Shown in pieces: positions 20,617-35,754 of a stretch of DNA of 64,000 bases. The number at the start of each line of letters is the position of its first letter. Position 1 is the stretch's first letter. The DNA is from Deltaproteobacteria bacterium (lineage in GTDB: Bacteria > Bdellovibrionota > UBA2394): contig JAFLCD010000003.1 in the NCBI GenBank assembly GCA_017302715.1, positions 83,154-147,153 of the forward strand. Direction: 5' to 3'. The position numbers and the translations under genes are program-made. The notes below the pieces were generated by a model. The model did not search any database, had not been told where the DNA came from, and worked only from the letters and a program-made list of their open reading frames with translations.

Positions 20617-21204
20617 TTGAAAAAGTTTCACTCTCTTTATAGCAAAAGTATTATTGGATTTACGTTGATCGAGTTAATGATCACGGTCGCGATCATTGCA
20701 GTTTTATCGGCCATCGCGATTCCCGTTTATACGAGTTATATCCGTCGCTCGTATTTGTCAGAAGCGACAACTTCGATTTCTGCGATCAAATCAGCCGAAG
20801 AAAGTTTTTTCACGATTAACAATTGTTATATCGAGGCGCTTGCTCATCCGGCGACTGTTCCCGCTGGTGTATCGGTTTCTTGGGATTCGTCGACCTTTTC
20901 TACACCCAATTCTTGGGCTCGAAACGCATTGGGAGTTCGACCTGATAAAAATGTTCGATTTCAATATCAAGTTTACGCTTCTAATTCCCTATCGGGCGGT
21001 GGATGCGGCAGTTCTCCAACGGCAGTTCCCGCAACTTTAGGTTGCGTGGCAAATGCCCAAACCGTTTTTGCTAACGCAGCTCTTTTTCCAAGTAATTGGT
21101 ATATTGTCGTCGCTCGAGGTGATTTAAATGGTGACAATACTTCTTCTACCATCATTTCTGGGATAGATGACTCTCAAATTGTCATGTGTAATGAGCTTCA
21201 ATAA
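20617..21204 (+). CDS. pilA: type IV pilin (prepilin, N-methylation site G|FTLIELM)
   Basis: TTG start immediately after the pilR stop, preceded by an AAGGAAGGAAAAGG RBS. Leader ...SIIG then [23 protein letters not shown]-terminal Cys pair. Confidence 0.8.
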   Translation: MKKFHSLYSKSIIGFTLIELMITVAIIAVLSAIAIPVYTSYIRRSYLSEATTSISAIKSAEESFFTINNCYIEALAHPATVPAGVSVSWDSSTFSTPNSWARNALGVRPDKNVRFQYQVYASNSLSGGGCGSSPTAVPATLGCVANAQTVFANAALFPSNWYIVVARGDLNGDNTSSTIISGIDDSQIVMCNELQ

Positions 21205-21216
21205 TCTTCTTATTAA

Positions 21217-23121
21217 ATGGTGAAAAAGAGTTCTCGATTTCTTTATTTTTCTATTATTTTTGCAGGATTTTGTTTGGCCGCGATTTTGCGCATGTCGAAC
21301 TACTCTTTTGTTTTTCAAAATATCACCGGCCATCTTAACTTCATCGACCCGGATTGTTTTTATCAATTGAGACGTCTCGTTTATTTCTTAGCGAATTTTC
21401 CGCAGACCTTGCATTTTGATCCACTCGCCGATTGGCCCGCAGGTTCATTCGTCGACTGGCCAGATGCCTTTATTTATCTCATCGGCGTGCCACTTAAATT
21501 AATGGGGGTTCGAGATTTTAGAAGTCTCGAAATCGGATCCTGCTTCATGATGATTTTTTACGGTCTCGTCTGTTGCTTTGCTATTTTTAGATTGGCCAAG
21601 CGTCTGATTCCGGATTCTTCGATCGCGCTTCTTGTTTTCTTTTTATCGACGATGAATTTTTTACTGATTCGATTTTCTTGCTTAGGACAACTCGATCATC
21701 ATATTTTTGAAGCTATCTATCCGCCGGTGGTTTTGCTTTTAAGTTTAAAAGCTTTTCAGGACTTCTCTAAGGGATCGAGCGTTTTTCTTGGACTTCTTCT
21801 TTCACTCGCCTTGATGACGAGTTCTTCGAGTATTTTTATCGTCGGAGTGTTTTTTGCCATTTATGGATTTATTCTTGGCAAGAAAGAGAATTTTAAACTT
21901 TATTTTTTAACGGTAGGTTTAACTTTCGCAAGTCTTTTGCCGGCGGCCGTTTTGAACTTGATGGCCTTTGGACGATTTCAAATGATGGAACATCCGTCTT
22001 TTTTTCACATCGGCTTGGTTTTGGTTCTCGCTCTCTTCGCATACCTCGTTGCGAGATTTAAGTCGCAGGCTCCCGCAATTCTTTTAGGTTTCTTCGCTCT
22101 TTTTCTTATTGGCTATGCCCTCAATTGGCCGAGCCTCCTTATGCAGCCGCTTGCCCAAGGATTCGAATATGTATTTGGCCGCTCCGGAGTTTTACAAAAT
22201 GTTTCAGAGGCCTCACCTATTTTTCTGAATTACAATCAAGTTCAACTTAATTTTATTCATCTCAATTTTGGATATTTTGTTTACCTACTTCCGTTGGCTT
22301 GGGTTTTTGGCTTGTTCTATAAAAAGTTCTCCGTTCAAGAGAGAGTTTTGTTTTTGTCTCTGACGATGCTTTCGGCGCCTGGAATTTTTCAAAAAAGATT
22401 TGCGCATATTATGCTCGGCCTCTTTTTAGTTTTCGTCGGTTGGTGCCTTTGGAAAACTCTGGAGGCCTTTAAGCGATGGAAATTTCGTATTGGTCCTTTG
22501 CTGATTTTTACTCTTTTTTGTTTGGCGATTTTTCCCACTCTTCAATTTGGTTTTGCTCCTTCGGGAACTCCTCGAGATCTCGTCGATCTTAATGCTACGA
22601 AATTTTTTCTAGAGCGGCTTAAGCCTGAGGAAAAATCAGATCTCATTGTTTGGGATAGATTGGCGCTTAAGAGAAAAGTTACCGAAGGTATTTGGGCCAA
22701 CCCCAATCTCGGCCATATGCTCAATTATATGACTGGCTACGGAGTGCTTACGAATAGCTTTTATCATTGGGATAGCTTTGATAAAGATTTTAAATGGAGG
22801 TCCATTGAATCGGATTATGATTTCGTGCAGGCCTTAAAAGAAAATAAAATTCGATTTTATATTTTAGCGGATGATTTTAGATTTTTTCAGCTTCAATACC
22901 GCTTAAGAAATCTGGATCCAAAATCTTTTGTAGAAAATAAAGTGATCGATGGCCAAATGGCCACCGTCTTTAATATTCCAGAATTAGAAAAAAAGGTTTG
23001 GGTGCGAAGATTGATTCGAGAAGAAACATTTCCGGATTCTGAGAAATTATTTCAGGTGAAATTTAATACGGATCATTTTTATAATTATCTCAAAGCTTAT
23101 CGATTTACGGCGCTACCTTAG
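21217..23121 (+). CDS. polytopic membrane protein, GT-C-fold glycosyltransferase candidate with STT3/AglB-like first-loop motif
   Basis: 634 aa with at least 11 predicted TM helices. The first extracytoplasmic loop carries IDPDCFYQLRR (compare the D-x-D...Y..R loop of STT3/PglB/AglB and acidic loops of ArnT/PMT). C-terminal soluble domain of about 190 aa; no clear WWDYG. Confidence 0.45.
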   Translation: MVKKSSRFLYFSIIFAGFCLAAILRMSNYSFVFQNITGHLNFIDPDCFYQLRRLVYFLANFPQTLHFDPLADWPAGSFVDWPDAFIYLIGVPLKLMGVRDFRSLEIGSCFMMIFYGLVCCFAIFRLAKRLIPDSSIALLVFFLSTMNFLLIRFSCLGQLDHHIFEAIYPPVVLLLSLKAFQDFSKGSSVFLGLLLSLALMTSSSSIFIVGVFFAIYGFILGKKENFKLYFLTVGLTFASLLPAAVLNLMAFGRFQMMEHPSFFHIGLVLVLALFAYLVARFKSQAPAILLGFFALFLIGYALNWPSLLMQPLAQGFEYVFGRSGVLQNVSEASPIFLNYNQVQLNFIHLNFGYFVYLLPLAWVFGLFYKKFSVQERVLFLSLTMLSAPGIFQKRFAHIMLGLFLVFVGWCLWKTLEAFKRWKFRIGPLLIFTLFCLAIFPTLQFGFAPSGTPRDLVDLNATKFFLERLKPEEKSDLIVWDRLALKRKVTEGIWANPNLGHMLNYMTGYGVLTNSFYHWDSFDKDFKWRSIESDYDFVQALKENKIRFYILADDFRFFQLQYRLRNLDPKSFVENKVIDGQMATVFNIPELEKKVWVRRLIREETFPDSEKLFQVKFNTDHFYNYLKAYRFTALP

Positions 23122-24245
23122 GGCGTGCTTACGGACTTAGTTTTCGTAGCATCATAAATAAAATATCCACCCACTCCCGCTAAAACGGCAACACCTGTCC
23201 AAAACCAAGGAGATTCAAAAATAGAACTTTCGCTTCGATCTTCATTTATCTGACTGTCTTTAGAAAAATCTTTAGCCCACGCAGTCGAAGGATCAGAAGG
23301 TTCTTTTAAAATCGAGCCCATTTGAGCCTGAGAGATAATAAGAGGAACAGCTTGGTTGCTTTCATCCCGAATCATAACGGCAATTCCCGCTGCTCGACTG
23401 AGATCTGTCGGCCGCGTGGCAATTAAATTTTCTTGCAGTTTTCGATGCTCGATATTTTTCCAAATAGATCGGTTCCAAATTTTGTCAAAGTGAGTTTCAT
23501 TTTTGCTAACCGTAAGCCAATAAGCTTGAAGTTCATCTCCATCGAGTAGATGAATTAAAAATTTTCCTTCTGTTAATTCAAGAGGCAAAGCTTTCTCTCG
23601 CCCGTTAATGAGAATTCTTTGTGCAAAATGAGAAGTCGTGGGCGATGGTAGTTGAATTTTATATTTGATATTTTGGTTTTGCTTAAGTTCCGACTGCAAT
23701 TTTGTAGAAAGTCGTGCTGCAAATGCTGGCTCTCCAAAAAATCCACGCACCTCTGGTGAAACTTCGTTGAGTCCTTCCTCGGCATCCCCAATCATTCTTT
23801 GCAGGGCTGCAATCTCGACCAAATCCTCAAATGTTTTTGGATAAGGCATGCTTTGACTGATCAATTGTCTCGCTTCGTTGAGTGAGGATTGCGCATCGGC
23901 GTAACGCAATTCTAAATAAAGCTGTGAAGCACGCTTTATTTTGCTCTCGATGGTCTCATCGTTTTCATCCTTTATTTTGGTTCGATCCAAAGATGAAAAG
24001 AGCGGAACTCGGCGATAAAATCCACTTAACCAAAGGTCTTCGTCTTTTTTAGATAGAGGTAGTCCAACCAGCGATGAAGCCTTTTCATCATGGGGGTTGA
24101 TGAGATAAGTTTGTGCATAGAGATTTTGAAGGGACAAAATGCAAAAGATTATGGCGCTGATGAGGCCTCTAAAAAGCTTATTAAATAAAGAACTAAACCC
24201 TATTTTCATGCTGCGGGTTCTCGCCTGGCAACAGAAGGAAGTCAA
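23118..24245 (-). CDS. secreted protein with conserved C-terminal 'WFW' Gly-rich transmembrane anchor (paralogue 3)
   Basis: 375 aa with a signal peptide. C-terminus: ...FESPWFWTGVAVLAGVGGYFIYDATKTKSVSTP. Same tail architecture as 8359..9657 and 9654..10478. Confidence 0.5.
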   Translation of the reverse strand: MTSFCCQARTRSMKIGFSSLFNKLFRGLISAIIFCILSLQNLYAQTYLINPHDEKASSLVGLPLSKKDEDLWLSGFYRRVPLFSSLDRTKIKDENDETIESKIKRASQLYLELRYADAQSSLNEARQLISQSMPYPKTFEDLVEIAALQRMIGDAEEGLNEVSPEVRGFFGEPAFAARLSTKLQSELKQNQNIKYKIQLPSPTTSHFAQRILINGREKALPLELTEGKFLIHLLDGDELQAYWLTVSKNETHFDKIWNRSIWKNIEHRKLQENLIATRPTDLSRAAGIAVMIRDESNQAVPLIISQAQMGSILKEPSDPSTAWAKDFSKDSQINEDRSESSIFESPWFWTGVAVLAGVGGYFIYDATKTKSVSTP

Positions 24246-25259
24246 GTGAGCATGAAGAAACCTTTGGGGCTTATTTTAGCTGGGGGGCAATCTAAACGGC
24301 TGTTTCCGGTAACCGTTCCTAAACCGCTTTTAAAGGTAAATGGAATTAGTTTACTTGAGCAATCCATTCGCAGATTGAAGGGATTCGATGTCTATATCGT
24401 AACGAATGCTCAAATCGCTGAAGAGATTCGCAAGGCTTTTAGAGCCGACAGAATAAAAATTCCCTCCTTTATTATAGAGCCTGAAGGTCGAGATACCGCC
24501 GCGGCCGTGGGTTATGGAATCCGAATGGCTGAAAAAAAACGAAAGCATCCTTGGGTGGCGGTGTTGAGTGCAGATCAATGGATGCCAGACGATAGAAATT
24601 TTTCAAAATTTTTAAAAAATATGCAGTCGGAGATTCAGAAATTTCCTGATGCTCTTTTTGTGGGCGGAAGTTCCGCTTCGACGAAAGCTCCTCATTCGCA
24701 TTCTCAGTTTGGTTGGATTGCGCCACAAAGGACCGAAAAGAATTCCAGTGCGGTGAAAAAATTTGTGGAAAAACCCAAAGGAACTCTGCTTCAAAAAATG
24801 CGAAAGTCTAAAGCACTCATCAATGCCGGAATGTTTTTTGGACGGCCTGAAGTTTTTTTAAAAGCTTATCAGAAGTTTTATCCTGAGATTTTGAGTGCCA
24901 CTCCAAAAAATTATTATCAATTAAAACGCCAACCGATTGATCGCGCGATTTTTGAAAACTACTCAAAGGTGCGAGTCATTGCCTTGCCCATGCGATGGGA
25001 AGATTTGGGAACTTGGGAGGATTGGTTTACGAATGTAGGTACGCAAGTTTCGACTAAGAATTCTGTGAAATCAAAAAAGATGAAGGTCAGCACGGGCGCC
25101 CAGATCCGCTGTAAAAAAGTTTTGATTTCGGCAGATGAAGATTTTGAAATTTTCGGATTTGATTTAGAAGATTTGGCCATTATTCAATCAGGCTCAAAGC
25201 TGCTTGTGATGCCGCTTTCCAAGACTCGAGATTTAAAAAATTATTTGGAGAATTTATAA
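24246..25259 (+). CDS. mannose-1-phosphate guanylyltransferase (NTP-transferase domain)
   Basis: N-terminal nucleotidyltransferase motif (LILAGGQSKRLFPVT..PKPLL). Length and layout match the GMP domain of type II PMI/GMP enzymes. GTG or ATG start. Confidence 0.75.
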   Translation: MSMKKPLGLILAGGQSKRLFPVTVPKPLLKVNGISLLEQSIRRLKGFDVYIVTNAQIAEEIRKAFRADRIKIPSFIIEPEGRDTAAAVGYGIRMAEKKRKHPWVAVLSADQWMPDDRNFSKFLKNMQSEIQKFPDALFVGGSSASTKAPHSHSQFGWIAPQRTEKNSSAVKKFVEKPKGTLLQKMRKSKALINAGMFFGRPEVFLKAYQKFYPEILSATPKNYYQLKRQPIDRAIFENYSKVRVIALPMRWEDLGTWEDWFTNVGTQVSTKNSVKSKKMKVSTGAQIRCKKVLISADEDFEIFGFDLEDLAIIQSGSKLLVMPLSKTRDLKNYLENL

Positions 25260-25600
25260 TGGATTGGACGGAGGAGCGCCCTTGGGGACGATTCAAAAAC
25301 TTATTGGATGTCGATTTTACCAAAGTCAAAATCATCGAAGTCGATGCAGGTAAGCGTTTAAGTTATCAATCTCACACTAAGCGCCGAGAATCGTGGACAG
25401 TCGCAAAGGGTGAAGCCGTCGTTATTTTAAATGACAAAGAAATCTTTTTAAAAGTAGGCGAGCATATCGATATTCCCTTGGGCGCAAAACATCGTCTTGA
25501 AAATCGAAGTTCAGAAAAGTTGAGCATCATCGAAGTTCAAACCGGAACTTATTTTGGAGAGGACGATATCAAGAGATATCAGGATGATTGGGGGCGTTGA
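25259..25600 (+). CDS. cupin domain protein = C-terminal mannose-6-phosphate isomerase (type II) module, separate ORF
   Basis: 113 aa. ERPWG...YQSHTKRRESWTV..GEAVV...IP.GAKHRLEN...IEVQTG.YFGEDDIKRY matches the C-terminal cupin of bifunctional ManC. TAATG junction with the preceding ORF. Confidence 0.7.
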   Translation: MDWTEERPWGRFKNLLDVDFTKVKIIEVDAGKRLSYQSHTKRRESWTVAKGEAVVILNDKEIFLKVGEHIDIPLGAKHRLENRSSEKLSIIEVQTGTYFGEDDIKRYQDDWGR

Positions 25601-26510
25601 GCGCTCGATTTTTAGAATCTCGAAATCCTCTTTTAAATTCTTTTGCCCAAATTAGATTCAATTGAAAAATTTTGAAAAAATTAAACAAGATCTCTTTTAA
25701 GTAAAAAGATTTTAACTTAATACTACGAGACAAAATCGCAGAAAAAAAAGCGAGTCCTAAAAATTTTCCAAAAATTTTAAATCTTTTTTTAGGTGTAATT
25801 TTAAATTCTTTTGGTAGGTCTCCATCGTAAAATCCTCGCCAGTAACCCATGAACCTTGCTTTTTCTAAAATATTTTCTTTTTTGATGAGGTGAGCCGTAT
25901 GCGTGATAGAGAGCTCTGGGATATATCGAATTTCACTACGAAGATTAGGTAAGTCTTCTATTGTCTTTAAAAATCCGATATCTTCGCAGGCCAACCAATC
26001 TGACCGAAAGCCTCCCACTTGTTTAAAAAAACTTCGCCGAATAAGTAAATTGCCACTATGTAAAAATCGGAGAGATTGATTTTGAGAACTTAGAAATTCA
26101 TGAAACTCCATCAAATGAAGCGCAAAAGCCCAAGAAAATTTGAGATCTTCGAAATGTACGCCTCCATTAAATGCAATCCAGTTGGGATATTTTTTTGTAA
26201 GTATTTGAGCTGTTTTCATCCAATCTGCATTCCAAATGCAATCGCTATCTAAAAAAGCAATCCATTGATTAGTCGCTTGAGACGCCCCAAGGTTCCTTGC
26301 TTCTCCGGCAAACATTCTTCGATTGGGAAAGCTAAATTTGACTCGGTCTTTATATTTTAGAAGTTCGCTGTCAAGATTTTTAGATGATGAGTCGACAACT
26401 ATGATTTCAACTATATCCTCCGATTGAATTTGATTTAAGACAGAATCAATGCATCGAGAAAGAATATATGTAGGGGTTTGAAATGAGGGAATGACGACGG
26501 ATAAGTTCAT
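25569..26510 (-). CDS. glycosyltransferase family 2
   Basis: N-terminal GT-A motif (LSVVIPSFQTPTYILSRCIDSVLNQ) and DSD motif (FLDSDCIW). Confidence 0.7.
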   Translation of the reverse strand: MNLSVVIPSFQTPTYILSRCIDSVLNQIQSEDIVEIIVVDSSSKNLDSELLKYKDRVKFSFPNRRMFAGEARNLGASQATNQWIAFLDSDCIWNADWMKTAQILTKKYPNWIAFNGGVHFEDLKFSWAFALHLMEFHEFLSSQNQSLRFLHSGNLLIRRSFFKQVGGFRSDWLACEDIGFLKTIEDLPNLRSEIRYIPELSITHTAHLIKKENILEKARFMGYWRGFYDGDLPKEFKITPKKRFKIFGKFLGLAFFSAILSRSIKLKSFYLKEILFNFFKIFQLNLIWAKEFKRGFRDSKNRALNAPNHPDIS

Positions 26511-26575
26511 AAACTACAATCAAAATCTTAAACGGGTTATCAATTAGAAAACAATCATGAGTTAAGTAGTGAATA

Positions 26576-27424
26576 ATGAAATCATCTCCAAAATTTTCTT
26601 TAGTTTTATGTACGGTTGGTCGAGAGCTAGAGCCGATCAAGCTTTTGAAGTCTCTATCAAATCAGAGCTACAAGGAATTTGAATTGATTATTGTGGATCA
26701 AAACGAAGACGAGCGAATTTCGAATGTTCTTCGTGCCCATTCATTTCCATTCAAAATTATTTATATAAAAAATCAGAGAGGGCTATCTAAATCAAGAAAT
26801 GTTGGCTTGAAGCATATTTCTGGAGATGTCGTAGCTTTTCCAGACGATGATTCTTGGTATCCCGAGAATTTGTTGAAGGAAGTGGAGAAATGTTTTTTAA
26901 ATGATCCCGCTACCGATGGATTTATTGGTCTTACTGTAGACGAAAAAAATATTCCTTCTACAGGATGTCGTGATACCAACTCCTCTTTGGTCACGCGTTT
27001 TAGTCTTCTCAGAATGTCTGTTTCAAATAGTATTTTTTTAGGAAGGCAAATCATTAAGACCGTGGGAGACTTCGATGAGACCTTAGGTATTGGTGCCGGC
27101 ACGCCCTGGGGAGCTTCGGAAGAGACAGATTACTTAATTCGAGTGTTTGATGCAGGATTTGTATTACATTTCAATCCTGATATTAAAATTTTTCACCCTC
27201 AAATATTTCTTAGTTACGATCAAAAATATTTAGAAAAAGCCTTTTCATATGGAGCGGGCTTCGGACGAATCTTAAGGAAGCACCGGTATCCTTTAGGGTT
27301 TATCGCGTGGAAACTTTTTAAAACATTTGGAGGATGTGTTCTTGCGGTATTGAGATTTAAAATCCCACTTGCTAAATATTATCTTTATTCTTTTCGCGGG
27401 CGATTGAAGGGGGTGATTTCATAA
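26576..27424 (+). CDS. glycosyltransferase family 2
   Basis: FSLVLCTVGRE...LLKSLSNQSYKEFELIIVDQN and a DxD region (FPDDDSWY). Confidence 0.7.
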   Translation: MKSSPKFSLVLCTVGRELEPIKLLKSLSNQSYKEFELIIVDQNEDERISNVLRAHSFPFKIIYIKNQRGLSKSRNVGLKHISGDVVAFPDDDSWYPENLLKEVEKCFLNDPATDGFIGLTVDEKNIPSTGCRDTNSSLVTRFSLLRMSVSNSIFLGRQIIKTVGDFDETLGIGAGTPWGASEETDYLIRVFDAGFVLHFNPDIKIFHPQIFLSYDQKYLEKAFSYGAGFGRILRKHRYPLGFIAWKLFKTFGGCVLAVLRFKIPLAKYYLYSFRGRLKGVIS

Positions 27425-28600
27425 TTTTGGGTTATTTAAAAATCCCATGGTCTTAAATGCTAATTGAAATCGTTGCTTCCAGGTATGGTCTCTTAAGCAT
27501 CGTTCCCGGCCCTTCGAGGCAATTCTATTTCTTAGAGAATCATTTTTTAAATAAAAGTTAATTTTATCTACGAGCTCTTCTCTATTTTTATAGCATTCAA
27601 TCTCGCTTCCTATTTTAAAAAATTCTTCAAGTTCTTGCATATACTCTACTAAATAAAAACCTCCTGACATTGGAACTTCAAAATCTCTTAAGCGAATTTG
27701 CAATATTCTTTGATCGCCTTGCAAATCTCCCACACTAGAGAAACCGAGGTTGATTTTCGATTTACTGAAAGTTTTTACTACGTCCGTATCCGAAAGGACC
27801 CCACCTAAATATTGAGCAGGAATATTTTTAAATTTTTCTTGAATGAGATTGCTCTTACTAAAAGTGTAATTTTTTACAAAACGAATTAAATCTTTTGGTA
27901 ACGATAAAACGGAAAATTCTCTTAAAATTTTTTTAAAGTATCGGTTTGTCTTAGTAATAAATCTTGAATCTAAGTTTTTCCAACCGTAGCCAAAAACAAA
28001 TGTCGGAATTCCCTGACTAAATAAATATTTTATTAAATTTGGCCTTTCTCCATAGCATTGACCAACAAAGGACACATCGTATTCTTTTGGCAAATCATAA
28101 GGTTTATAAAAATTTTCGCTTGCAGCTTCTTGGCAGTAAATGGGATTGGCGCCCAAGGCGCGATAGTCGTCCAATCTAAATTTTTCTGGGACTAGGCACC
28201 AATCATAAATGGGGGAGATCTCTGAAACTAAGTCTAATTGATATGAGGCATTGCAATACCAATTCACTGTTTTAATTCTTAGGTGCTTAATCTCTTCAAT
28301 TGTTTCTTTAGTGATGCAAGCATCATAAAAATAGCTGAAAAAGAGATCGATTCTATCTTTTCTGTGATGGTGAGAGATTTGTTTCAAAATTGCTTCACTC
28401 ACAACAGGCCTATTCTTCTTTATAAATTTCATTTGAATTGCATCAGATTTATCTAAGTTAGAAAAAGTTGCTGCAAGGTCGTAGTCGAATTCAATTACTT
28501 CATGCCCCATTTCAACCAGGGAATTAAATAAATTATTTCTCCATATATTGGAATGTATGGCCGAATTAGGAGAACGATCCGAGGCATAAAAAATTCTCAT
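27419..28600 (-). CDS. CgeB-family (DUF3880 / Glyco_trans_1_2-like) glycosyltransferase candidate
   Basis: The C-terminal region (RLRDFEVPMSGGFYLVEY...ECYKNREELVDKINFYLKND..R..IA..GRERCLRDHTW) resembles the CgeB spore-maturation glycosyltransferase family. Confidence 0.45.
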   Translation of the reverse strand: MRIFYASDRSPNSAIHSNIWRNNLFNSLVEMGHEVIEFDYDLAATFSNLDKSDAIQMKFIKKNRPVVSEAILKQISHHHRKDRIDLFFSYFYDACITKETIEEIKHLRIKTVNWYCNASYQLDLVSEISPIYDWCLVPEKFRLDDYRALGANPIYCQEAASENFYKPYDLPKEYDVSFVGQCYGERPNLIKYLFSQGIPTFVFGYGWKNLDSRFITKTNRYFKKILREFSVLSLPKDLIRFVKNYTFSKSNLIQEKFKNIPAQYLGGVLSDTDVVKTFSKSKINLGFSSVGDLQGDQRILQIRLRDFEVPMSGGFYLVEYMQELEEFFKIGSEIECYKNREELVDKINFYLKNDSLRNRIASKGRERCLRDHTWKQRFQLAFKTMGFLNNPKL

Positions 28601-28621
28601 AAGAATTCTCTTGGTGACATG

Positions 28622-30352
28622 CTATAAATTTTCTTCGTTGTGTTCTAAATGGAATTCAATTTTCTCTGAACAAGAATGAATCACTTCTTCTTTATGAGAG
28701 ACGATAATAAGTGTCTTGTGCCCGACAAGCGCTTTTAATTCTGAAAGAATTTCTTTTTCAGTTTTGGTGTCAAGTCCCGCTGTTACTTCATCAAGAATTA
28801 AAATCTTTGGATCGAAATAAAGTGCTCTAGCGAGCCCCAATCGTTGACGTTGACCTCCTGAAAATCGAATGCCTTTATCGCCAACCAAAGAATTTAAGCC
28901 TTCCGGAAGAGATTTGACATAGTCATACAAGCGAGCACCAGCTAAAGCGCTCCAAATTTGCTTATCATCATGCTCTCCACATTCGATGCCAAAAGCTATA
29001 TTTTCTCGAACGGTTCCATCTAGGACAAAAACTGTTTGTGAAACGTAACCGATATTTTTTCTCCAAGAATTAAGATCATCAAAAATATTTAAACCAGCCG
29101 ATAAAATTTTGCCCTCCGAGGGCTCAAGTAGCCCCAAAAGCAAATTAACCATTGTAGACTTTCCGGAGCCAGACGGTCCAAAAAAGGCGACCGCATGATT
29201 TTTTTTTATCGTATGGGATAAATTTTTTAAAATAAATCGGTTGGTGTTTTTATAGCGAAATGAAATATTTTGAATTTCAATTTCGCTATCAAACTTTAAT
29301 TTCAAGTGATCTTCCTTTGGTCGGTCATATGAAATTTTTATTTGATCTAGCTCTCTTTGCAAAAACTCAATTGATGGTTGGAAAAAAGAAACTTGATTTA
29401 CGCAAGAAATGAATCTGCTGATAGATGGCATAATACGATAGGCAGCAGCTATGAAAAGTCCAAGAATAGGAATTGGCGACTCATTACCTCCACTTCTAAT
29501 AAAAATGATTAAAGATATAAAAAGTGCACCACCAATCATAATTATTTCCATCAAAGGCCGCGGCAACTCGCCTAATACACGCATTTTACGTACAGAATCC
29601 GAATGATCATCTACGGCGGCGGAATATCTTTTGAAGAAATATTTTTGGCTACCGAATATCTTTACTTCTTTGATTCCGAGAAAAGTCTGATCAATCCATT
29701 TATAGATTAAAAAACCTTCGCGCTGGGCCCTTGCTCCTGAATTTGCTAGTTTTCTATTCACATAAAAATAATAGACAAAAAGAAAACCGAGAAGAACGAG
29801 GGCCACAATAATAGTGGATGTGCCACTGACTATGAGCAGAAGAGCAAATATCATAATGACGGTAAGTGCTTCATTTATGAGAGAAAGAATTGGCCATAGA
29901 ATGCCATCAAATATATTTGTCACTTCAAGCTCAATAGTTCTGGAAAGTCGATGAGTTTCGCGTTCTAAATGAATCATGTAGGGCGCATGAATATAAGCCT
30001 TCATAAAACGCTTAGAGAGAGAGTTTCGTTCCTCCGAAACCCATCGAGTTTGGCGATCTATGATAAATAATAAAAAAATATTTTTTGTTAAATATAAAAC
30101 TAAAAGCACTAAACTTAAAGTAAGAAGGGCGTGGTGCTGGAAAAAGGGAATAGAAATTCTGTTAACTCGCTCATACCAAGGAGAATTTTGAATATCATTC
30201 ATCTGACTAATGAAACTAATCAGAGGTAATAACAGGCTCATCACTACTATCTCTAAAAATCCAGAGATAGAAAAGAAGAAGAGGAGAAGTAAGATTCTTC
30301 TTTTAGCTCGAGTGTCCAGAATGTGCCAGAGTTGGCTTACTAATTTTGCCAC
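28622..30352 (-). CDS. ABC transporter, fused permease/ATPase (MsbA/PglK-like type I exporter)
   Basis: 576 aa with six N-terminal TM helices. Walker A (GPSGSGKST), signature (LSGGQRQRLGLARAL), Walker B (ILILDE). Confidence 0.85.
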   Translation of the reverse strand: MAKLVSQLWHILDTRAKRRILLLLFFFSISGFLEIVVMSLLLPLISFISQMNDIQNSPWYERVNRISIPFFQHHALLTLSLVLLVLYLTKNIFLLFIIDRQTRWVSEERNSLSKRFMKAYIHAPYMIHLERETHRLSRTIELEVTNIFDGILWPILSLINEALTVIMIFALLLIVSGTSTIIVALVLLGFLFVYYFYVNRKLANSGARAQREGFLIYKWIDQTFLGIKEVKIFGSQKYFFKRYSAAVDDHSDSVRKMRVLGELPRPLMEIIMIGGALFISLIIFIRSGGNESPIPILGLFIAAAYRIMPSISRFISCVNQVSFFQPSIEFLQRELDQIKISYDRPKEDHLKLKFDSEIEIQNISFRYKNTNRFILKNLSHTIKKNHAVAFFGPSGSGKSTMVNLLLGLLEPSEGKILSAGLNIFDDLNSWRKNIGYVSQTVFVLDGTVRENIAFGIECGEHDDKQIWSALAGARLYDYVKSLPEGLNSLVGDKGIRFSGGQRQRLGLARALYFDPKILILDEVTAGLDTKTEKEILSELKALVGHKTLIIVSHKEEVIHSCSEKIEFHLEHNEENL

Positions 30353-30459
30353 TACAATTCATCCCTAAAAAATTTAAAATACCTCTTTCTAAAATTTAAG
30401 CCAAGCTTGTCTATAGTTTGAAACAACTTTGCTAATTCAGCCAAATTCAGTTTACTAAG

Positions 30460-31110
30460 TTGATGAAAGTTCATCTTGGTTGTGGGGACCGTTATTTAGA
30501 TGGATACCTAAATATTGATTTGCCAACTAGTGATCACAGCGTGATGACTCAGTTAAAAATTGATAAGATTGCAAATGTAACTGAGTTATCTTTTCCCAAA
30601 GTTTCGATACAAGAAGTTCGCCTTCATCATTTGTTTGAGCATTTCAATCGCCCGCAATCTTTTGCTTTTATAGCTGCATGGCGGTCATGGCTAGTCCCTT
30701 TTGGCCTTCTTCGAATTGAAGTTCCTGATTTTAGGCGCACTGCTTGGTCAATTCTTTCTCCATTTTCTTCTTCAAAGACTAAAATGACAGGCATTCGACA
30801 TCTATTTGGATCTCACGAGTCTTCATGGGCCATTCATTGTGAGGGTTGGACCGTTGCTTCTCTGACAGATTTGCTAAAAGCTTTTGATTTTAAGATTATC
30901 AAGTGTCAAAAAAACTCTTGGAAGCATACTTACAATTTTGAAATTTTTGCAATTCGTTCTGAAAAAGAAATAAGTCTAGAAATGGCCTGTCAGATAGCAG
31001 AAAAAAATCTTAAAAATTATTTAGTCGACTTCACTGATTCTGAAGTGAAAATGCTGGCGGTATGGAAGAAAAAATTTCAAGAAACAGCAGTAAATTGCTG
31101 GGGAAAATAG
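30460..31110 (+). CDS. hypothetical protein, possible class I SAM-dependent methyltransferase-like
   Basis: N-terminal VHLGCGDRYLDGYLNID and later LHHLFEHF resemble methyltransferase motif I and post-I. Weak. Confidence 0.3.
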   Translation: MMKVHLGCGDRYLDGYLNIDLPTSDHSVMTQLKIDKIANVTELSFPKVSIQEVRLHHLFEHFNRPQSFAFIAAWRSWLVPFGLLRIEVPDFRRTAWSILSPFSSSKTKMTGIRHLFGSHESSWAIHCEGWTVASLTDLLKAFDFKIIKCQKNSWKHTYNFEIFAIRSEKEISLEMACQIAEKNLKNYLVDFTDSEVKMLAVWKKKFQETAVNCWGK

Positions 31111-31113
31111 ATC

Positions 31114-32292
31114 TTGAAAGTTTTACATACTGTTGAATTTTACCATCCAAGCAAAGGCGGAGCTCAGGAGGCTATTCGGCAAATCTCAGAAGCATTGGTG
31201 AGGCTGGGACATGAAGTCACAGTTGCTACCACTTTTGATCCTGATAGAAACTTTTCGGAACTAAATGGAGTAAAAATTAAGGAATTTTCGATAAGTGGAA
31301 ATTGGGTAAGTGGGGTTAAAGGTGACCTCGAGGGTTACAGAAATTTTGTGCGAAATTCTAATTTTGATATTGTATTGAATTATGCCGCTCAACAGTGGAC
31401 GACGGACGCACTTTTAGATGTATTGCCAGAAATTAAATCAAAGAAAATATTGGTGCCCTGTGGTTTTTCTGGCCTTTATAATTCCCATTACAAAAATTAT
31501 TTTCAAAAAATGAGGGAATGGCTTTTGCTCTATGATAGTTGTATTTTTTTATCTCGGAATTATCGCGATTATGAATTTGCAAAAATTGTTGGTATTAAAA
31601 ATATACAGTGTATTCCAAATGGAGCTTCTCGAGCGGAGTTTGAATTGGAATTTGATTGCTCTCTTCGAAGACAATTAGGAATTCCTAATGACGCTTTTCT
31701 TATTTTGCATGTGGGATCATTCACAAAACTTAAGGGTCAGTACGAGGCTTTAAAGATCTTTTCTCTCTCTAAGATTAGAAATTCTTATTTTTTACTTATT
31801 GGAAATACTTCAAATTACTTTGATTTTCTTCGCTGTAAATTTTTGTGCCATTTTATCAATATAAAATCCTTCTTCTCAGGTTCTAAAAAGAAAGTTTTAA
31901 TTCGAAATCTTCCTCGTGAATCTACGGTCGCAGCTTTTCATGAAGCTGATCTTTTTCTTTTTCCTTCTCGAATCGAATGCTCTCCTCTTGTTTTATTTGA
32001 AGCTATGGCATCTAAATGCGCGTTCTTAGTGAGCAGAGTTGGTAATGCTGAAGAAATTATTTCTTTGTCGAATGGCGGTTTTTTGATTGAGGGAGATCTT
32101 GACCCATTGGGGTATTCTGTCCCGAATCTAAAAAATGGAGCAAAAAAATTATCTGATCTTTGGCAAAATCCTACTTTAAGAAATGAGAGTGCTCAGAATG
32201 GCTTTTTGACTTGGCAAGAGTCGTTTACATGGGAGTCAATAGCTGTGCGTTATGAGCATTTATACAAAAAGCTCATTAGTGAAAAAATATGA
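31114..32292 (+). CDS. glycosyltransferase family 1 (GT4-type)
   Basis: GT-B architecture: N-terminal KVLHTVEFYHPSKGGAQE and a C-terminal EX7E-like region (FPSRIECSPLVLFEAMA). TTG start. Confidence 0.75.
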   Translation: MKVLHTVEFYHPSKGGAQEAIRQISEALVRLGHEVTVATTFDPDRNFSELNGVKIKEFSISGNWVSGVKGDLEGYRNFVRNSNFDIVLNYAAQQWTTDALLDVLPEIKSKKILVPCGFSGLYNSHYKNYFQKMREWLLLYDSCIFLSRNYRDYEFAKIVGIKNIQCIPNGASRAEFELEFDCSLRRQLGIPNDAFLILHVGSFTKLKGQYEALKIFSLSKIRNSYFLLIGNTSNYFDFLRCKFLCHFINIKSFFSGSKKKVLIRNLPRESTVAAFHEADLFLFPSRIECSPLVLFEAMASKCAFLVSRVGNAEEIISLSNGGFLIEGDLDPLGYSVPNLKNGAKKLSDLWQNPTLRNESAQNGFLTWQESFTWESIAVRYEHLYKKLISEKI

Positions 32293-33401
32293 GTTATAAA
32301 ACCCCACCTTTGATTTCAGTTTTGATGCCCGTCTTCAACGGAGAGAAATATCTTGATGCTGCTATTAGAAGTGTTTTGCGACAAAGTTATTCTCATTTTG
32401 AGCTTATCATTTTAAATGACGGTTCTACTGATGGGAGCGCAAAAATAATTCAATCCTTTAAAGATCCTCGAATTATCTATATCAAAAATGATCAAAACTT
32501 AGGGCTCGTCAAAACTCCAAATCTTGGAATTGAAAGGGCTAGAGGTCAGTATATTGCTCGAATAGACAGTGATGACATTCTCTTTTCTGATCGCTTCATG
32601 AAGCAGGTGGATTTTTTAGAATCTCACCCGGACGCCGTAGCGTGTGGAAGCTGGTATTTTACTATGAAGTTTTTACCAAATACCTTAGTAAAAGTGCCAA
32701 CCCGGCCTGAAGACATTGCTTCGGAGCTTATCTTCAAGAATGTAATGGCTCATTCGAGTATGATGATGCGAGCTGATAGCCTTCGGCAGTATAAAATTTT
32801 CTATTCGGATAAATACCCATTTATCGAAGACTGGGAATTATGGTTAAGACTTTCTAAAGTAGGGCGACTCTATAATATTCCGGAGCCATTGTTTCTTTAT
32901 CGGCTGCATTCTCAAAGCGTAAGCTTTAAAAACTTCGATGTTCAAAATCAAAGTATTCAAAAAATTATCGCCTCCTCCTTTGAAAGTTTTGGAATCGATT
33001 TGTCGGTCGAAGAGAGTCAGGCATTGTACGACTTGGTAAATTCTGATCGTAATCTTCAGTTCGATTTATTAAAAAAAGTTGAAAGTTTGCTTCTGAAAAT
33101 AAAACAAAGAAATGAAATTCAAAAAGTGATTGCCACTCAAAGCTTTGAAATGACTTTAGCTCGTCTGTGGTTTCGTATTGTGCTCAAATTTTCTAAGCGA
33201 GGTTTAGATACTTGGAAAACTTATTATCAATCGCCGTTAAGAAGGCAGGATATAGTCTCTTCATTTTCTTTATTCGTTTTTTTTATGCTTTGTTTTTTCA
33301 AGCAGAGATTAAGACTTCATTCTATAAAACAATGGATGGAGTCTTGGACTTCTAAAGCTTTTTATAGAGCTCTATTTGAGATTGTCGCCGTGAGAAAATA
33401 A
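32289..33401 (+). CDS. glycosyltransferase family 2
   Basis: ISVLMPVFNGEKYLDAAIRSVLRQSY..FELIILNDGSTDGS and a DxD motif (IDSDDIL). ATGA overlap with the upstream GT4. Confidence 0.75.
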   Translation: MSYKTPPLISVLMPVFNGEKYLDAAIRSVLRQSYSHFELIILNDGSTDGSAKIIQSFKDPRIIYIKNDQNLGLVKTPNLGIERARGQYIARIDSDDILFSDRFMKQVDFLESHPDAVACGSWYFTMKFLPNTLVKVPTRPEDIASELIFKNVMAHSSMMMRADSLRQYKIFYSDKYPFIEDWELWLRLSKVGRLYNIPEPLFLYRLHSQSVSFKNFDVQNQSIQKIIASSFESFGIDLSVEESQALYDLVNSDRNLQFDLLKKVESLLLKIKQRNEIQKVIATQSFEMTLARLWFRIVLKFSKRGLDTWKTYYQSPLRRQDIVSSFSLFVFFMLCFFKQRLRLHSIKQWMESWTSKAFYRALFEIVAVRK

Positions 33402-33436
33402 AAAACCCCCGAAGATTTCTCTGCGGGGGTTTTGAA
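33402..33436. terminator. bidirectional rho-independent terminator hairpin between convergent GT2 gene and pilin gene
   Basis: AAAAACCCCCGAAGATTTCTCTGCGGGGGTTTTG: a 6-bp GC stem (CCCCCG/CGGGGG) flanked by an A-run and a T-run. Confidence 0.7.
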
Positions 33437-33458
33437 AATACTTTTGCTAACTTGATTA

Positions 33459-34058
33459 TTAGTTAAGTTCGCCGAAGATCTGAATTCCACCAGCATTTGG
33501 TGTGCCATTAGTAACGGATATATCTCTCCAAAATGCAGAGTAAGGAGCTGATCCATCAAGATCTCCTTGAGCAATCGCGGATACGGATTGTGTGCTGCTG
33601 CTACCATCGGTAATAGCTCCAGCTGCTGATGCAGTAGCTAAGTTAGTACTTGCCGCTGTAACTAAAGCTGTACCAGCAGGAGTGCCGCTCAGTACGCCAG
33701 CGTTATAAGCGAACAAAACAGGAGACGAACTTGCGAATCCAAGTACGTTAAAGGCTCCAGCGTCTACGCCGCTTTCCCAGGCTACTTTAGCACCAGTAGG
33801 AGTTGTTCTTGGAACAGAAACTGTTTGAGCCATAAAAGTTGGGACAGCTTCACCACCGCCCGAAGAGGCAGCTCTTGGACGTGTGAAGAAAGTTACTTCA
33901 GCATCAACCAAGTTTTTCAAAAGCAAAGGTGCTTCTGCAGTTTTCGATCGTTTGATGTAATTTAAGAACGCTGGGATCGCCACAGCGGCCAAGATTCCGA
34001 TGATCGCCACAACGATCATAAGCTCGATAAGGGTGAAACCCTTTTTTGTCATTTTCAT
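33459..34058 (-). CDS. type IV pilin, second copy (short 6-aa leader, G|FTLIELM)
   Basis: MKMTKKG then [24 protein letters not shown]..., a classic type IVa prepilin N-terminus. Ala/Gly/Ser/Thr-rich C-terminal domain. Confidence 0.8.
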
Positions 34059-34353
34059 AAAGTCCTCCTAAAAAAATTTATTTTCATCCCTTCTCGAGCG
34101 CGGCTTTGAGATCGCACCGAGAAATTCCTCTACCGACCATCATCTCCTAAAGCATAAGTCATGCCAAAGAATTTCAAGCGAAAATCCATGACGCGCTGCG
34201 GCTCTAAGTTATGAAAATCTCTAGGTAAGTTTAATGTTTTCGTTTCTCTGAACCAAGCTAAATTATCGGCACAAAATGTAACGAAAAATGTCGCTTTTGA
34301 CGTGCTTTAGTCTTTTGTGACAAATTTTGTCGCCCTCTATAAGATCTAGTTTC

Positions 34354-35415
34354 ATGTCGGTTTCGGTAATTATTCCCTGCTTAAACGAAGAAGGCTCCAT
34401 CGAGGAATGTATTCGTTTGGTGAAAGCGGCGTTTGCGGGCGAGGGCAAACTCGAAATTATAGTCGCTGACAACGGTTCTACGGATCGTTCGAGTGAACTC
34501 GCCAAAAAAGCTGGTGCCCGGGTGGTCGAAGAGCGCCGCCAAGGATATGGTTCAGCCATTTTATGTGGAATCCGCGAAGCGACAGGCGAGTTCTTGGTCA
34601 TAGGAGACGCCGACAATACTTATGACTTTAGGGACGCTGCCATTCTTGTTGAAAAATTAAAAGAAGGTGCCGAGTTTGCAATCGGCGATCGGATTCACGG
34701 TGAAGTCGATAAAGGTGCGATGCCTTGGTTGCATATGCATTTAGGTACGCCGGTGTTGACCTGGGTGCTCAATCAATTTTTTGGATGCCGTGTTCACGAT
34801 ATTAACTGCGGACTTCGTGCGATTCGTCGCGAGGCCGTTGAACGTTTGCGCTTACGATCTCCCGGAATGGAATTCGCGAGCGAGATGGTGATTCATGCGC
34901 AAAAAGCCGGACTTAAATTTGCAGAGACTCCGATTCGCTATTACAGACGTCATCACGGTCAAGCGAAGCTCAGAACATTTCGCGATGGCTGGCGACATTT
35001 GCGTTTCATTTTGCTCTGCGCTCCTTTTCCTCTTTATTTTTTGCCGGCGGCGGCGAGTGCTATTTTGAGTGCATATTTTTATACGCAGCCTCGGTTAGGG
35101 TTTTTGGTGCTTGCAAGTTTATTTAGCTTGGCGGCGTTTCAGTTTTTTATTTTCGGCGTTTTAGCCAAAACTTATTTATGGGTCGCCGATTCTTTTTTGG
35201 TCGATAGGGGATTTGGAAGTTTGATAGATAAATTCAAACTCGAATATGGAATTCTCACTTCGCTTTTATTTTTATTGGGCGGAATCGTTTTAGTGAGAGA
35301 ATTCGACATTTCAAATTTGATTCGCGGTGCATCACTGATTGCTCTTTCGCTTCAAATTTTCTTCTCCTCGTTTTTACTCTCTACGATCATGTTTAAAAAA
35401 CGAGACACGATTTAA
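34354..35415 (+). CDS. GT2 polyprenyl-phosphate glycosyltransferase (DPM1/GtrB/ArnC-like) with C-terminal TM helices
   Basis: VSVIIPCLNEEGSIEECI...IIVADNGSTDRS...GYGSAIL.G...GEFLVIGDADNTYD followed by hydrophobic helices. Start set to the internal ATG (MSVSVII). Locally higher GC than neighbouring genes. Confidence 0.7.
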   Translation: MSVSVIIPCLNEEGSIEECIRLVKAAFAGEGKLEIIVADNGSTDRSSELAKKAGARVVEERRQGYGSAILCGIREATGEFLVIGDADNTYDFRDAAILVEKLKEGAEFAIGDRIHGEVDKGAMPWLHMHLGTPVLTWVLNQFFGCRVHDINCGLRAIRREAVERLRLRSPGMEFASEMVIHAQKAGLKFAETPIRYYRRHHGQAKLRTFRDGWRHLRFILLCAPFPLYFLPAAASAILSAYFYTQPRLGFLVLASLFSLAAFQFFIFGVLAKTYLWVADSFLVDRGFGSLIDKFKLEYGILTSLLFLLGGIVLVREFDISNLIRGASLIALSLQIFFSSFLLSTIMFKKRDTI

Positions 35416-35436: not shown

Positions 35437-35754
35437 ATGAGTGCGCAGCTTGAATGTGTCGGTGTTGATATTTTTGTTTGGTCGAATGGCGGAATTCCAA
35501 AAGTTCCTGCTGAAATAGCAGGTCTCAAAATGGATTGTATTTCTCAGCGTGGACTAAAATGTTCTCCGGGACCTACGCCCGAAGGTTTGATCGTCGATTG
35601 GTATGTGTGTCGCTACACAAGTAAATCGGATGTAGGTGACGATGCGATTCAAAAATTGTTGAGCGAAATTTCTAAGCAGATGAAGTGGGAAAAAGTTCAA
35701 AAACTTTTTCGCCAAAACAATATCGATTTATTTTCAAAGGTGTACGAAGCATGA
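35437..35754 (+). CDS. hypothetical small protein
   Basis: 105 aa ORF between the GT2 gene and the dehydrogenase; no motifs. May be non-coding. Confidence 0.3.
   Translation: MSAQLECVGVDIFVWSNGGIPKVPAEIAGLKMDCISQRGLKCSPGPTPEGLIVDWYVCRYTSKSDVGDDAIQKLLSEISKQMKWEKVQKLFRQNNIDLFSKVYEA

Follow-up and report, generated by a model that had tools for sequence, protein, structure and literature searches.

The window analysed here is a 64-kb stretch of Bdellovibrionota DNA (contig JAFLCD010000003.1), and the region under study, positions 20617-35415, carries glycan-synthesis genes together with two type IV prepilin genes. A sequence-only reading had described this region as a single glycan island bracketed by pilin genes. 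In this study, the gene map was checked by listing the open reading frames (ORFs) and by Pfam and NCBIfam scans. The genes named in that reading, a possible methyltransferase aside, were confirmed in position and had strong family matches. Its gene list was incomplete, and a conserved minus-strand ORF at 23118-24245 (orf375) had been left out. The gene of chief interest, designated STT3L, lies at 21217-23121 on the forward strand and encodes a polytopic GT-C protein of 634 aa. Around the pil and glycan genes, the flanks of the window consist of housekeeping genes.

STT3L has a single family match, NCBIfam TIGR04154 (archaeo_STT3; E=2.7e-28, residues 14-408), at 98.8 bits versus a cutoff of 450. 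It had no Pfam match even at E<=10, and the window copy does not reach the gathering score of PF02516, which is passed by some relatives (a paralogue in the related locus L002, 28.9 versus 24.5; P0002 and P0043 by precomputed matches). The only notable sequence match in the PDB was Archaeoglobus fulgidus AglB. An AlphaFold2 (AF2) model built from 18 family members had a predicted local distance difference test score (pLDDT) of 91.3 and a predicted template-modelling score (pTM) of 0.90. The model has the organisation of the GT66 fold, with 13 transmembrane helices and a C-terminal periplasmic domain of ~185 aa, and this domain, of mixed helix and strand, resembles the AglB-S domains 3VU0 and 3VGP. 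Foldseek ranked A. fulgidus AglB first (E 3e-18, template-modelling score 0.76) and eukaryotic STT3 next (~1e-12 to 1e-13), followed in lower ranks by PglB (4e-9), DPY19 (1.6e-7), AftA and ArnT (3e-4). Against profiles of bona fide AglB proteins, hhalign gave a probability of 99.9% and an E value of 1.7e-32 over 528 columns.

The sequence-only reading had placed a GT-C protein 3' of pilA in the position held by TfpW, TfpO/PilO and PglL. The protein and its linkage to pilins, seen in 14 of 15 loci, are real, but it is not an enzyme of those kinds and is a divergent member of the STT3 family. An identity as PglL, TfpO (PilO), PglS or TfpM was rejected on the STT3 fold and on the absence of any Wzy_C or other Pfam match. 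TfpW, compared by its description, was rejected on the C-terminal domain, which is of the AglB-S type and not a tetratricopeptide repeat (TPR) domain, and on the weakness of the Emb/AftA matches. ArnT, a match to which had been named as the outcome that would speak for a lipid A-modifying enzyme, was rejected as well; AglB and STT3 rank first in the family and fold searches, and ArnT, at only 3e-4, stands far below AglB.

The motifs of STT3L were compared in an alignment of 18 homologues that are 26-52% identical. The DxD-type motif of external loop 1, F-I-D44-P-D46, aligns with (N/x)D-x-YYH-RR of AglB-like proteins, and D46 is invariant in the 18 sequences and kept by all but a few of 150 deep matches. 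L-D160-H-H162-I-F-E165-A aligns with the second metal-binding motif of A. fulgidus AglB (N-D-H-H-I-W-E-A in 3WAJ), and D160, H161, H162 and E165 (DHHIxE) are invariant across the homologues. N-V-S-E331-A in external loop 5, the TIXE/SVSE motif, aligns with T-I-A-E of 3WAJ, and Q-K-R394-F, which holds the lipid-phosphate Arg, aligns with Q-N-R-F; both E331 and R394 are invariant. We take DHHIWEA, TIAE and QNRF of A. fulgidus AglB to be its metal-binding, catalytic and lipid-phosphate-binding positions. The catalytic core of STT3L appears intact by these alignments. At the position of WWDYG, hhalign placed N-P-N497-L-G499-H. The Trp-Trp-Asp of WWDYG binds the +2 Ser/Thr of the N-X-S/T sequon. 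Every member of the family proper has the consensus (W/F)x(N/T/H)-P-N-x-G-H at this position, and none has the Trp pair. The STT3L motifs are conserved over ~45 cluster representatives. An invariant D524-x-x-x-R528 is present in the C-terminal domain and may or may not correspond to the DK/MI motif.

A deep search with a hidden Markov model (HMM) against 1.84 billion representatives found 2,706 STT3-like proteins. About 30 full-length representatives, all of 600-650 aa, scored above 400 bits, and the next score was ~180 bits. WWDYG, or a variant of it with a single Trp, occurs in the more distant STT3-like proteins (720-790 aa), and a sister clade of ~600 aa has P-P-N-x-G-(N/S)-A instead (P0052, P0054-P0056, P0058, P0060, P0063-P0065, P0067, P0130; locus L016). 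Because of this clear gap in score and the sorting of the motifs, STT3L is classed as a discrete, undescribed short clade of the STT3/AglB/PglB family. It is filed as a new STT3-like clade and not as PglB or AglB, since it departs from those enzymes in the WWDYG motif, in the sequons of its candidate acceptors and in the curated score cutoffs. A full-text search found no description of the STT3L family or of pilin glycosylation in Bdellovibrionota within the literature that it covered. As side observations, many of the 2,706 representatives carry degenerate single-Trp WWDYG variants, and at least one member of the PPN sister clade comes from a high-GC genome (L016, GC 0.70), the contigs being too short for context. 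A pilin-like 'GDLDGDG' tail downstream in L016 was dropped as a pilin, as it has no prepilin motif.

Two prepilin genes lie at the locus. Prepilin 1 (pilin1; 20617-21204, forward strand; N_methyl 2.3e-6, ComP_DUS slightly under its cutoff) has a Myxococcus-type PilA as its best NCBIfam match, and its leader, MKKFHSLYSKSIIG, is followed by FTLIELM after the cut. Its TTG start comes directly after the pilR stop codon, so the zero-spacing entry into the island described earlier stands, and a Shine-Dalgarno sequence, AAGGAAGGAAAAGG, lies within the 3' end of pilR. Prepilin 1 is thus predicted to be translationally coupled to pilR, and no sigma54-type promoter was found for it. Orthologues with 50-60% identity occupy the equivalent position in 10 loci. 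Prepilin 2 (pilin2; 33459-34058, reverse strand) is Myxococcus PilA-like (N_methyl 2.6e-9; typeIV_PilA_Myxo 2e-17), with a leader that begins MKMTKKG and is cut after the Gly. Its orthologues, 41-49% identical, are found in L005 (three copies), L010, L011, L013, L014, L017 and L018. This second, divergent pilin is where the island had been said to end; the pilin was confirmed, but the DPM1-like gene lies beyond it and the bracket does not strictly hold for the whole system.

A sigma54-type -24/-12 element, TGGCATGACTTATGC, lies at 34152-34166 on the reverse strand, 126 nt upstream of the Gly-1 codon of prepilin 2. A single site of this kind is not above chance within the window (48 matches versus 41 expected). 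It is regarded as meaningful because it recurs upstream of pilin2 orthologues: the TGGCAY-N5-xTGCT element was found 126-157 nt upstream of 4 of 8 pilin2-type genes (the window, L011, L013 and L014) and of 0 of 10 pilin1 genes. Therefore, prepilin 2 is probably the major pilin driven by PilR and sigma54. Scans of the island for sigma70 promoters and terminators gave results at chance level.

Upstream of prepilin 1, on the forward strand, lie pilB (13376-15091; Pfam T2SSE/MshEN), pilT (15119-16312; T2SSE), pilC (16316-17536; T2SSF), pilS (17533-19119; HisKA/HATPase/6TM_PilS) and pilR (19123-20616; Response_reg/Sigma54_activat/HTH_8). The first three encode type IVa pilus motor and platform proteins, and pilS and pilR encode a sigma54-dependent two-component regulator. 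PilB, PilT, PilC and PilR are 73-89% identical, and PilS 40-52%, to the proteins of Bacteriovoracaceae loci in metagenome-assembled genomes (MAGs).

The partners of STT3L were then defined from the same map. The product of orf375 is a conserved protein of unknown function encoded at 23118-24209 on the reverse strand; the ORF reaches 24245 with a TTG start, and translation likely begins at the Met at 24209. The protein is 363-375 aa long and has a signal peptide, ~300 periplasmic residues, an invariant SPWFW, one C-terminal transmembrane helix and a terminal ...TP. Pfam, NCBIfam and the PDB gave no match, homology searches gave only 3 proteins, and its AF2 model was unusable (pLDDT 43.8). Orthologues of orf375 adjoin STT3L in L001-L006, L011, L013-L015, L017, L018 and L019. 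A split ManC follows on the forward strand. Its N-terminal part, a mannose-1-phosphate guanylyltransferase (24246-25259; NTP_transferase 1.1e-25), matches positions 4-344 of the GMP_PMI model TIGR01479 (7e-31), is conserved in 10 loci and is fused to the cupin in L004. Its C-terminal part, a separate PMI-type cupin ORF (25259-25600; MannoseP_isomer 3e-27), matches GMP_PMI positions 361-466 (8.7e-29) and is 65-84% identical in relatives.

Beyond prepilin 2, a DPMS/AglJ-like GT2 is encoded at 34327-35415 on the forward strand (Glycos_transf_2 1.7e-28). Four C-terminal transmembrane helices (228-355) follow its GT2 domain, as in the archaeal DPMS type. Its best NCBIfam match is AglJ (5.4e-40; 137.6 bits versus a cutoff of 325), and a haloarchaeal Dol-P-hexose transferase also matches under its cutoff (1.6e-27). 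In the PDB, the best match is the Pyrococcus furiosus Dol-P-Man synthase 5MLZ (3.4e-18), followed by ArnC, which is comparably similar. This GT2 is the best-conserved partner of STT3L, with orthologues that are 59-74% identical, and we propose that it is the priming or donor-forming polyprenyl-phosphate hexosyltransferase.

Gene order was compared between the proteins of the window and the ORFs of 15 related loci. STT3L of the window is 100% identical to a hypothetical protein of a MAG labelled 'Deltaproteobacteria bacterium'. All relatives placed by genome were Bacteriovoracaceae or Bdellovibrionota MAGs, as found by a pattern-based scan of a genome collection in which cultured species may be missed. 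In the window, L001-L005, L011 and L013-L015, the order is pilBTCSR, pilin1, a GalE-like epimerase in some, STT3L, orf375 (reverse), manC, a cassette of other genes, pilin2 (reverse), the DPMS-like gene, isocitrate dehydrogenase (IDH) and DsbD (arrangement A). The shorter run pilR-pilin1-(epimerase)-STT3L-orf375 is seen in L001-L005, L007, L011 and L013-L015. In L010 and L017, where STT3L is 26-29% identical, the order is GT2, amine oxidase, GT2a-like, DPMS-like, STT3L and pilin2 (reverse), and the stop of the DPMS-like gene abuts the start of STT3L (arrangement B). L018 has orf375 (reverse), STT3L, pilin2 (reverse), DPMS-like and IDH (arrangement C). The pilin2 orthologue immediately adjoins STT3L in L010, L017 and L018, with gaps of <100 bp. 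The adjacency of pilA and the GT-C gene noted in the sequence-only reading was borne out, as a prepilin gene lies <=~1.1 kb from STT3L in 14 of the 15 loci having enough flank, in at least three arrangements. Because the order recurs in many related contigs, the core arrangement is judged to be beyond chance. By this comparison, the conserved system consists of the pilin or pilins, STT3L, orf375 and the DPMS-like GT2, with GDP-mannose synthesis added in arrangement A.

The relatives also differ from the window in ways that touch the sugar and the copy number. A GalE-like epimerase gene lies between pilin1 and STT3L in five relatives (L002 9026-9976, GalE 1.7e-48; L005 9044-9994; L007 618-1559; L011 9087-10034; L014 7631-8566) and is absent from the window. 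This lineage-limited epimerase suggests that the transferred sugar differs between lineages. In L002, the segment 14315-19729 contains a second STT3L paralogue, of 601 aa and with H-P-D-L-A-H replacing P-N-x-G-H, together with the genes that precede it. This paralogue lies directly 3' of a HAD-UbiA phosphoribosyltransferase (Rv3806c 1.8e-31), a DprE1 homologue (1.5e-69) and a DprE2 homologue (2.4e-58), which by homology would form a complete polyprenyl-phospho-arabinofuranose pathway making a monophosphate donor. Three pilin2-type genes lie in tandem in L005 (16051-18082, reverse strand), and a partial second STT3L gene lies at 3-845 in L018, just upstream of orf375-STT3L; because of these copies, both pilins and transferase are counted as duplicated in some lineages.

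The donor was considered from the genes present. Family scans of the longer ORFs (~110 aa and up) across the 64 kb found no WecA/PglC/WbaP-type primer, Wzx, Wzy or WaaL, in agreement with the earlier statement that a priming phosphoglycosyltransferase and a Wzx/Wzy pair are absent; a primer may still be encoded elsewhere in the genome. Likewise, neither the window nor the conserved core yielded a flippase gene of the GtrA, SMR or MATE type. Since a DPMS/AglJ/ArnC-like GT2 and a conserved ManC occur together with no phosphoglycosyltransferase in the window, the gene content suggests that the donor or primer is a hexose, probably mannose, linked to polyprenyl monophosphate. The simplest account of the missing primer is that the DPMS/AglJ-like GT2 itself primes on this carrier. 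The L002 paralogue beside polyprenyl-phospho-arabinofuranose genes supports the monophosphate donor independently. A monophosphate linkage is made by Haloferax AglJ, Dol-P-Man synthase and GtrB, and the euryarchaeal AglBs, the closest relatives of STT3L, also use monophosphate-linked donors.

Sequons were counted in 20 cognate pilins and compared with shuffled sequences, and ten pilin1-type and eight pilin2-type proteins were aligned. Both window pilins carry one N-X-S/T each, near the C-terminus. No conserved N-X-S/T column was present in the alignments, and 5 of the 20 pilins have no N-X-S/T at all, with sequon-free examples in L001, L004, L005 and L010. Sequons are depleted in the set (28 observed versus 40.8 +/- 5.6 expected). 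The alignments also contained no conserved WxxW motif. Several Ser/Thr columns are conserved, and none singles out a site.

Between manC and pilin2 lies a block, 25569-33401, with a GC content of 0.34-0.37 versus ~0.40-0.42 around it. GT2a (25569-26510, reverse strand; Glycos_transf_2 1.8e-21) has counterparts in L010, L011, L015 and L017, with orthologues 36-42% identical, and GT2b (26576-27424, forward strand; Glycos_transf_2 2.2e-17) has a 31% identical counterpart in L015. The CgeB-like Glyco_trans_1_2 transferase (27419-28600, reverse strand; PF13524 6.5e-25) had no counterpart in the related loci compared. Next on the reverse strand is a fused TMD-NBD ABC exporter of the PglK/MsbA type (28622-30352; ABC_membrane, ABC_tran), which matches NCBIfam PglK at 5e-84, under the equivalog cutoff, and has PglK as its best full-length PDB match (~1e-67, versus 3e-52 for MsbA). 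This exporter is a candidate flippase for a lipid-linked glycan. It is absent from the related loci, and L015 has Wzm/Wzt instead. GT4 (31114-32292; Glycos_transf_1 2.4e-16, Glyco_transf_4 8.7e-8) and GT2c (32289-33401; Glycos_transf_2 2.9e-34, best NCBIfam match EpsE/TuaG-like) are on the forward strand. None of the GT2a, GT2b, GT2c, GT4 and CgeB-like proteins has a transmembrane segment. The possible methyltransferase (orf216; 30460-31110, forward strand) could not be upheld: it is a soluble protein of unknown function with only a Methyltransf_25 match at E=0.21 and no meaningful PDB match.

The block has no counterpart in L004 and L005 and is represented by two GT2 genes in L011 and by other glycosyltransferases in L013. 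At the same site, L015 carries GT2 genes, a 2-epimerase, a large methyltransferase and Wzm/Wzt with a Wzt_C domain. The earlier picture of one 14-kb glycan system is modified in that the block of glycosyltransferase and ABC genes, which accounts for most of the 14 kb, lies outside the conserved system and is a variable cassette of lower GC content, absent or replaced in relatives. Taken as a whole, the 14-kb island is best described as a composite of core and cassette, and the cassette may or may not supply STT3L. HNH-endonuclease ORFs and genes for AAA_14/DUF4143 ATPases occur at various places within and near the island in different MAGs (window 39328-40404, reverse strand; L015 12045-12947; L003 7527-8729; L014 11648-12718 and 14380-15684), some of them between STT3L/orf375 and manC. 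Their distribution is consistent with a hot spot of recombination or insertion.

With modest confidence, we favour the reading that the locus is a conserved pilin-linked protein-glycosylation system of the Bacteriovoracaceae with STT3L as its transferase. In the proposed mechanism, the split ManC would make GDP-mannose, and the DPMS/AglJ-like GT2 would load a hexose onto polyprenyl phosphate at the cytoplasmic face. Because this linkage would be a monophosphate, no WecA/PglC-type primer would be needed. In minimal relatives, the lipid-linked monosaccharide itself is probably the donor. In the window, the soluble GT2a, GT2b, GT2c, GT4 and CgeB-like enzymes would probably extend the lipid-linked sugar, and the PglK-like ABC exporter would flip the extended product. 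In the periplasm, STT3L would then attach the glycan to one pilin or to both, most likely on Ser/Thr or another residue outside a canonical sequon, with the orf375 protein probably acting as an accessory subunit. More tentatively, and falling somewhat short of even confidence, we suggest that STT3L founds a bacterial class of STT3-fold enzymes without Asn-X-Ser/Thr recognition, in which pilin is glycosylated on a non-sequon residue from polyprenyl-monophosphate mono- or oligosaccharides primed by a DPMS/AglJ-like enzyme.

Several points weigh against this reading. It is gene order alone that suggests that the pilins are glycosylated and that they are the substrate of STT3L. The synteny is largely inherited inside one family, so that about three or four arrangements count as independent, and all relatives are MAGs or metagenome contigs. 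L008 has an STT3L without a nearby pilin, close to NeuB/Maf genes. The conserved core lacks a dedicated flippase. The equivalence of the catalytic residues comes from sequence and profile alignment. Sugar and substrate can be named only tentatively because the DPMS-like, AglJ-like and PglK-like matches are all under curated equivalog cutoffs. Finally, the L015 cassette looks like an ordinary O-polysaccharide pathway, which usually ends on lipid A-core.

This last point bears on the possibility, doubtful but to be taken seriously, that the cassette at 25569-33401 is an independent polysaccharide or glycolipid locus of the ABC-transporter type, inserted at a hot spot between manC and pilin2, with STT3L using only the polyprenyl-P-hexose of the core. 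The lower GC of the block, its absence from L004 and L005 and its other content in L011, L013 and L015 are as expected of such an insertion. So are the mobile-type AAA_14/DUF4143 and HNH genes at the same place in L003, L014 and L015, and the Wzm/Wzt and methyltransferase of L015 are typical of O-polysaccharide export. However, a variable glycan cassette lying exactly between a transferase and the substrate presumed for it is a usual feature of protein-glycosylation and O-antigen diversity loci, GT2a-like genes accompany the DPMS-like-STT3L-pilin trio even in the rearranged L010 and L017, and the window holds no primer for a separate polysaccharide. An independent cassette would in any case be compatible with the core of the pilin-glycosylation reading.

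The remaining alternatives concern what STT3L acts on and whether it acts at all. A Gtr/ArnT-like role for STT3L and the DPMS-like synthase, with lipopolysaccharide (LPS), exopolysaccharide or another envelope glycan as periplasmic acceptor and with a pilin adjacency that reflects co-regulation or shared history, is unlikely. Three-component systems of a polyprenyl-P-sugar synthase, a flippase and a GT-C enzyme do usually modify glycans (PMC11127046), and the pilin-free STT3L of L008 and the O-polysaccharide-type export genes of L015 fit such an acceptor. Yet the characterised STT3-fold matches (AglB, STT3, PglB and DPY19) all act on protein acceptors and outscore the lipid- and glycan-modifying GT-C enzymes, wzx, wzy and waaL are not linked, and the pilin adjacency persists through at least three rearrangements, including the close gaps of L010, L017 and L018. 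It is quite unlikely that STT3L is a conventional Asn-linking oligosaccharyltransferase (OST), a divergent PglB/AglB in which the Asn of PNxGH replaces the Asp of WWD, acting on pilins or on many periplasmic proteins. Its family membership and intact catalytic core would allow this, as would the single C-terminal sequon of each window pilin, and archaeal AglB is reported to glycosylate type IV pilins (PMC5131992, PMC4390842). Canonical N-glycosylation is nevertheless disfavoured because both Trp residues of WWD are gone family-wide, no sequon position is conserved in the pilins, and a quarter of these, five of 20, are sequon-free in a set depleted of sequons. Very improbable is a catalytically dead STT3 relic whose part in the pilus would be structural or in assembly. 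Although WWDYG is lost and the curated family cutoffs are not reached, the aligned metal-binding, catalytic and phosphate-binding residues are invariant in homologues only 26-52% identical, and a donor-synthesising enzyme co-occurs throughout.

Among known systems, archaeal AglB (A. fulgidus AglB-S and the Haloferax volcanii AglJ pathway) is closest to STT3L in sequence and fold. STT3L shares the short length and minimal C-terminal domain of AglB-S (3VU0, 3VGP), and, in keeping with the AglJ pathway, no candidate primer other than the AglJ/DPMS-like GT2 is seen and a monophosphate-linked glycan could be lengthened by soluble GT2s. Archaeal AglB is likewise reported to modify type IV pilins (PMC5131992, PMC4390842). 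In contrast, the present system is bacterial (Bdellovibrionota), has x-P-N-x-G-H for WWDYG and pilins without a conserved sequon, scores far under the equivalog cutoffs and includes the extra bitopic partner orf375; its lipid would be a bacterial polyprenol, presumably undecaprenol. The Campylobacter jejuni Pgl system likewise has an STT3-family transferase and cytoplasmic assembly by several glycosyltransferases, and its PglK has a fused ABC exporter as counterpart in the window. However, the window has no PglC-type phosphoglycosyltransferase or bacillosamine genes, the exporter is not conserved in relatives, and PglB is more distant from STT3L than AglB/STT3 are. STT3L also lacks the WWDYG and D/E-X-N-X-S/T logic of PglB.

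Pilin-adjacent transferases offer a second set of comparisons. Pseudomonas aeruginosa TfpW, which arabinosylates group IV pilins, shares with STT3L a GT-C gene immediately 3' of a pilin gene and a polyprenyl-monophosphate sugar donor. TfpW is supplied by a DPA pathway (Rv3806c-, DprE1- and DprE2-like) and is an Emb/arabinosyltransferase-like GT-C enzyme with 11 transmembrane helices and a C-terminal TPR domain (bioRxiv 10.1101/2020.04.19.049825). The L002 STT3L paralogue lies beside the same DPA pathway, and these genes accompany only that paralogue. STT3L has instead a 13-helix STT3 fold and an AglB-type C-terminal domain. TfpW and STT3L are regarded as analogous enzymes of different lineages. 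The genes of PglL, TfpO/PilO, PglS and TfpM also adjoin pilin genes, and their products glycosylate pilin in the periplasm from a lipid-linked donor, but they are Wzy_C/WaaL-family enzymes with undecaprenyl-pyrophosphate donors, and STT3L has no Wzy_C. STT3L occupies the genomic niche of TfpW or TfpO.

The GtrA/GtrB/GtrC systems and the Citrobacter youngae GT136 system resemble the present one in combining a polyprenyl-P-sugar synthase with a periplasmic GT-C enzyme. The C. youngae ORF15 is a HAD-UbiA fusion (Kelly et al., PMC11127046), and the HAD-UbiA fusion of L002 resembles it. Those systems modify O-antigen glycans, whereas here the linked candidate acceptor is a protein and the GT-C enzyme belongs to the STT3 family; the core has no GtrA/MATE/SMR-type flippase, and the only exporter is the PglK-like one in the cassette. 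PMT O-mannosyltransferases and DPY19 follow a route from GDP-mannose through polyprenyl-P-mannose to a GT-C enzyme acting on protein, which matches the core genes. Unlike them, STT3L keeps the STT3 motifs, no sequence relationship is detectable, and the pilins have no conserved WxxW. Taken together, the system would work most like a hybrid of the archaeal AglJ/AglB pathway and three-component or PMT/DPY19-type protein glycosylation.

Two further features of the window were recorded. A palindromic element of ~90 nt is present in two copies (43143-43229 and 45598-45691) that flank a type III glutamine synthetase gene (43283-45595). Its arms of 36 nt are 92% complementary, its core is GGGTCGGGTTAAAAAGGTGCCAGGTC, and three exact arm copies were found where chance would give none. 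Both a REP/MITE-like element and a regulatory hairpin are conceivable. A separate 105-aa ORF with an Isocitrate_DH_C_bact domain (2.9e-11) occupies 35437-35754, close upstream of the gene for Iso_dh (35685-36752). Because the listed GTG start of Iso_dh overlaps this ORF, translation of Iso_dh probably begins at the internal Met near 35751. The two-ORF isocitrate dehydrogenase arrangement is also seen in L004, L011 and L018.

Bacterial pilin glycosylation is known from Wzy_C-type O-oligosaccharyltransferases and TfpW, and to our knowledge the STT3 homologues described from bacteria are essentially N-glycosylating enzymes of the PglB type. If the more tentative suggestion of a new STT3-fold class is true, STT3L would represent a further, evolutionarily independent class of pilin glycosyltransferase, with an OST scaffold turned, in bacteria, to another acceptor logic. 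The AglJ/AglB logic of archaea would have a bacterial counterpart, with glycan cassettes that can be exchanged and paralogues adapted to different donors (mannose or another hexose, and arabinofuranose). Pilin glycosylation in bacteria would also be connected to the AglB-dependent glycosylation of pilins and archaellins in archaea. With its few genes (pilin, DPMS-like gene, STT3L, orf375 and manC), the module is directly testable, and a transferase with different acceptor and donor rules may become a glycoengineering tool for glycoconjugates. In predators like Bdellovibrio, type IV pili play a central part in the attack on prey. Together with this role, the hypervariable cassette beside the pilins suggests a diversification of surface glycans that may be relevant to prey recognition or phage evasion.

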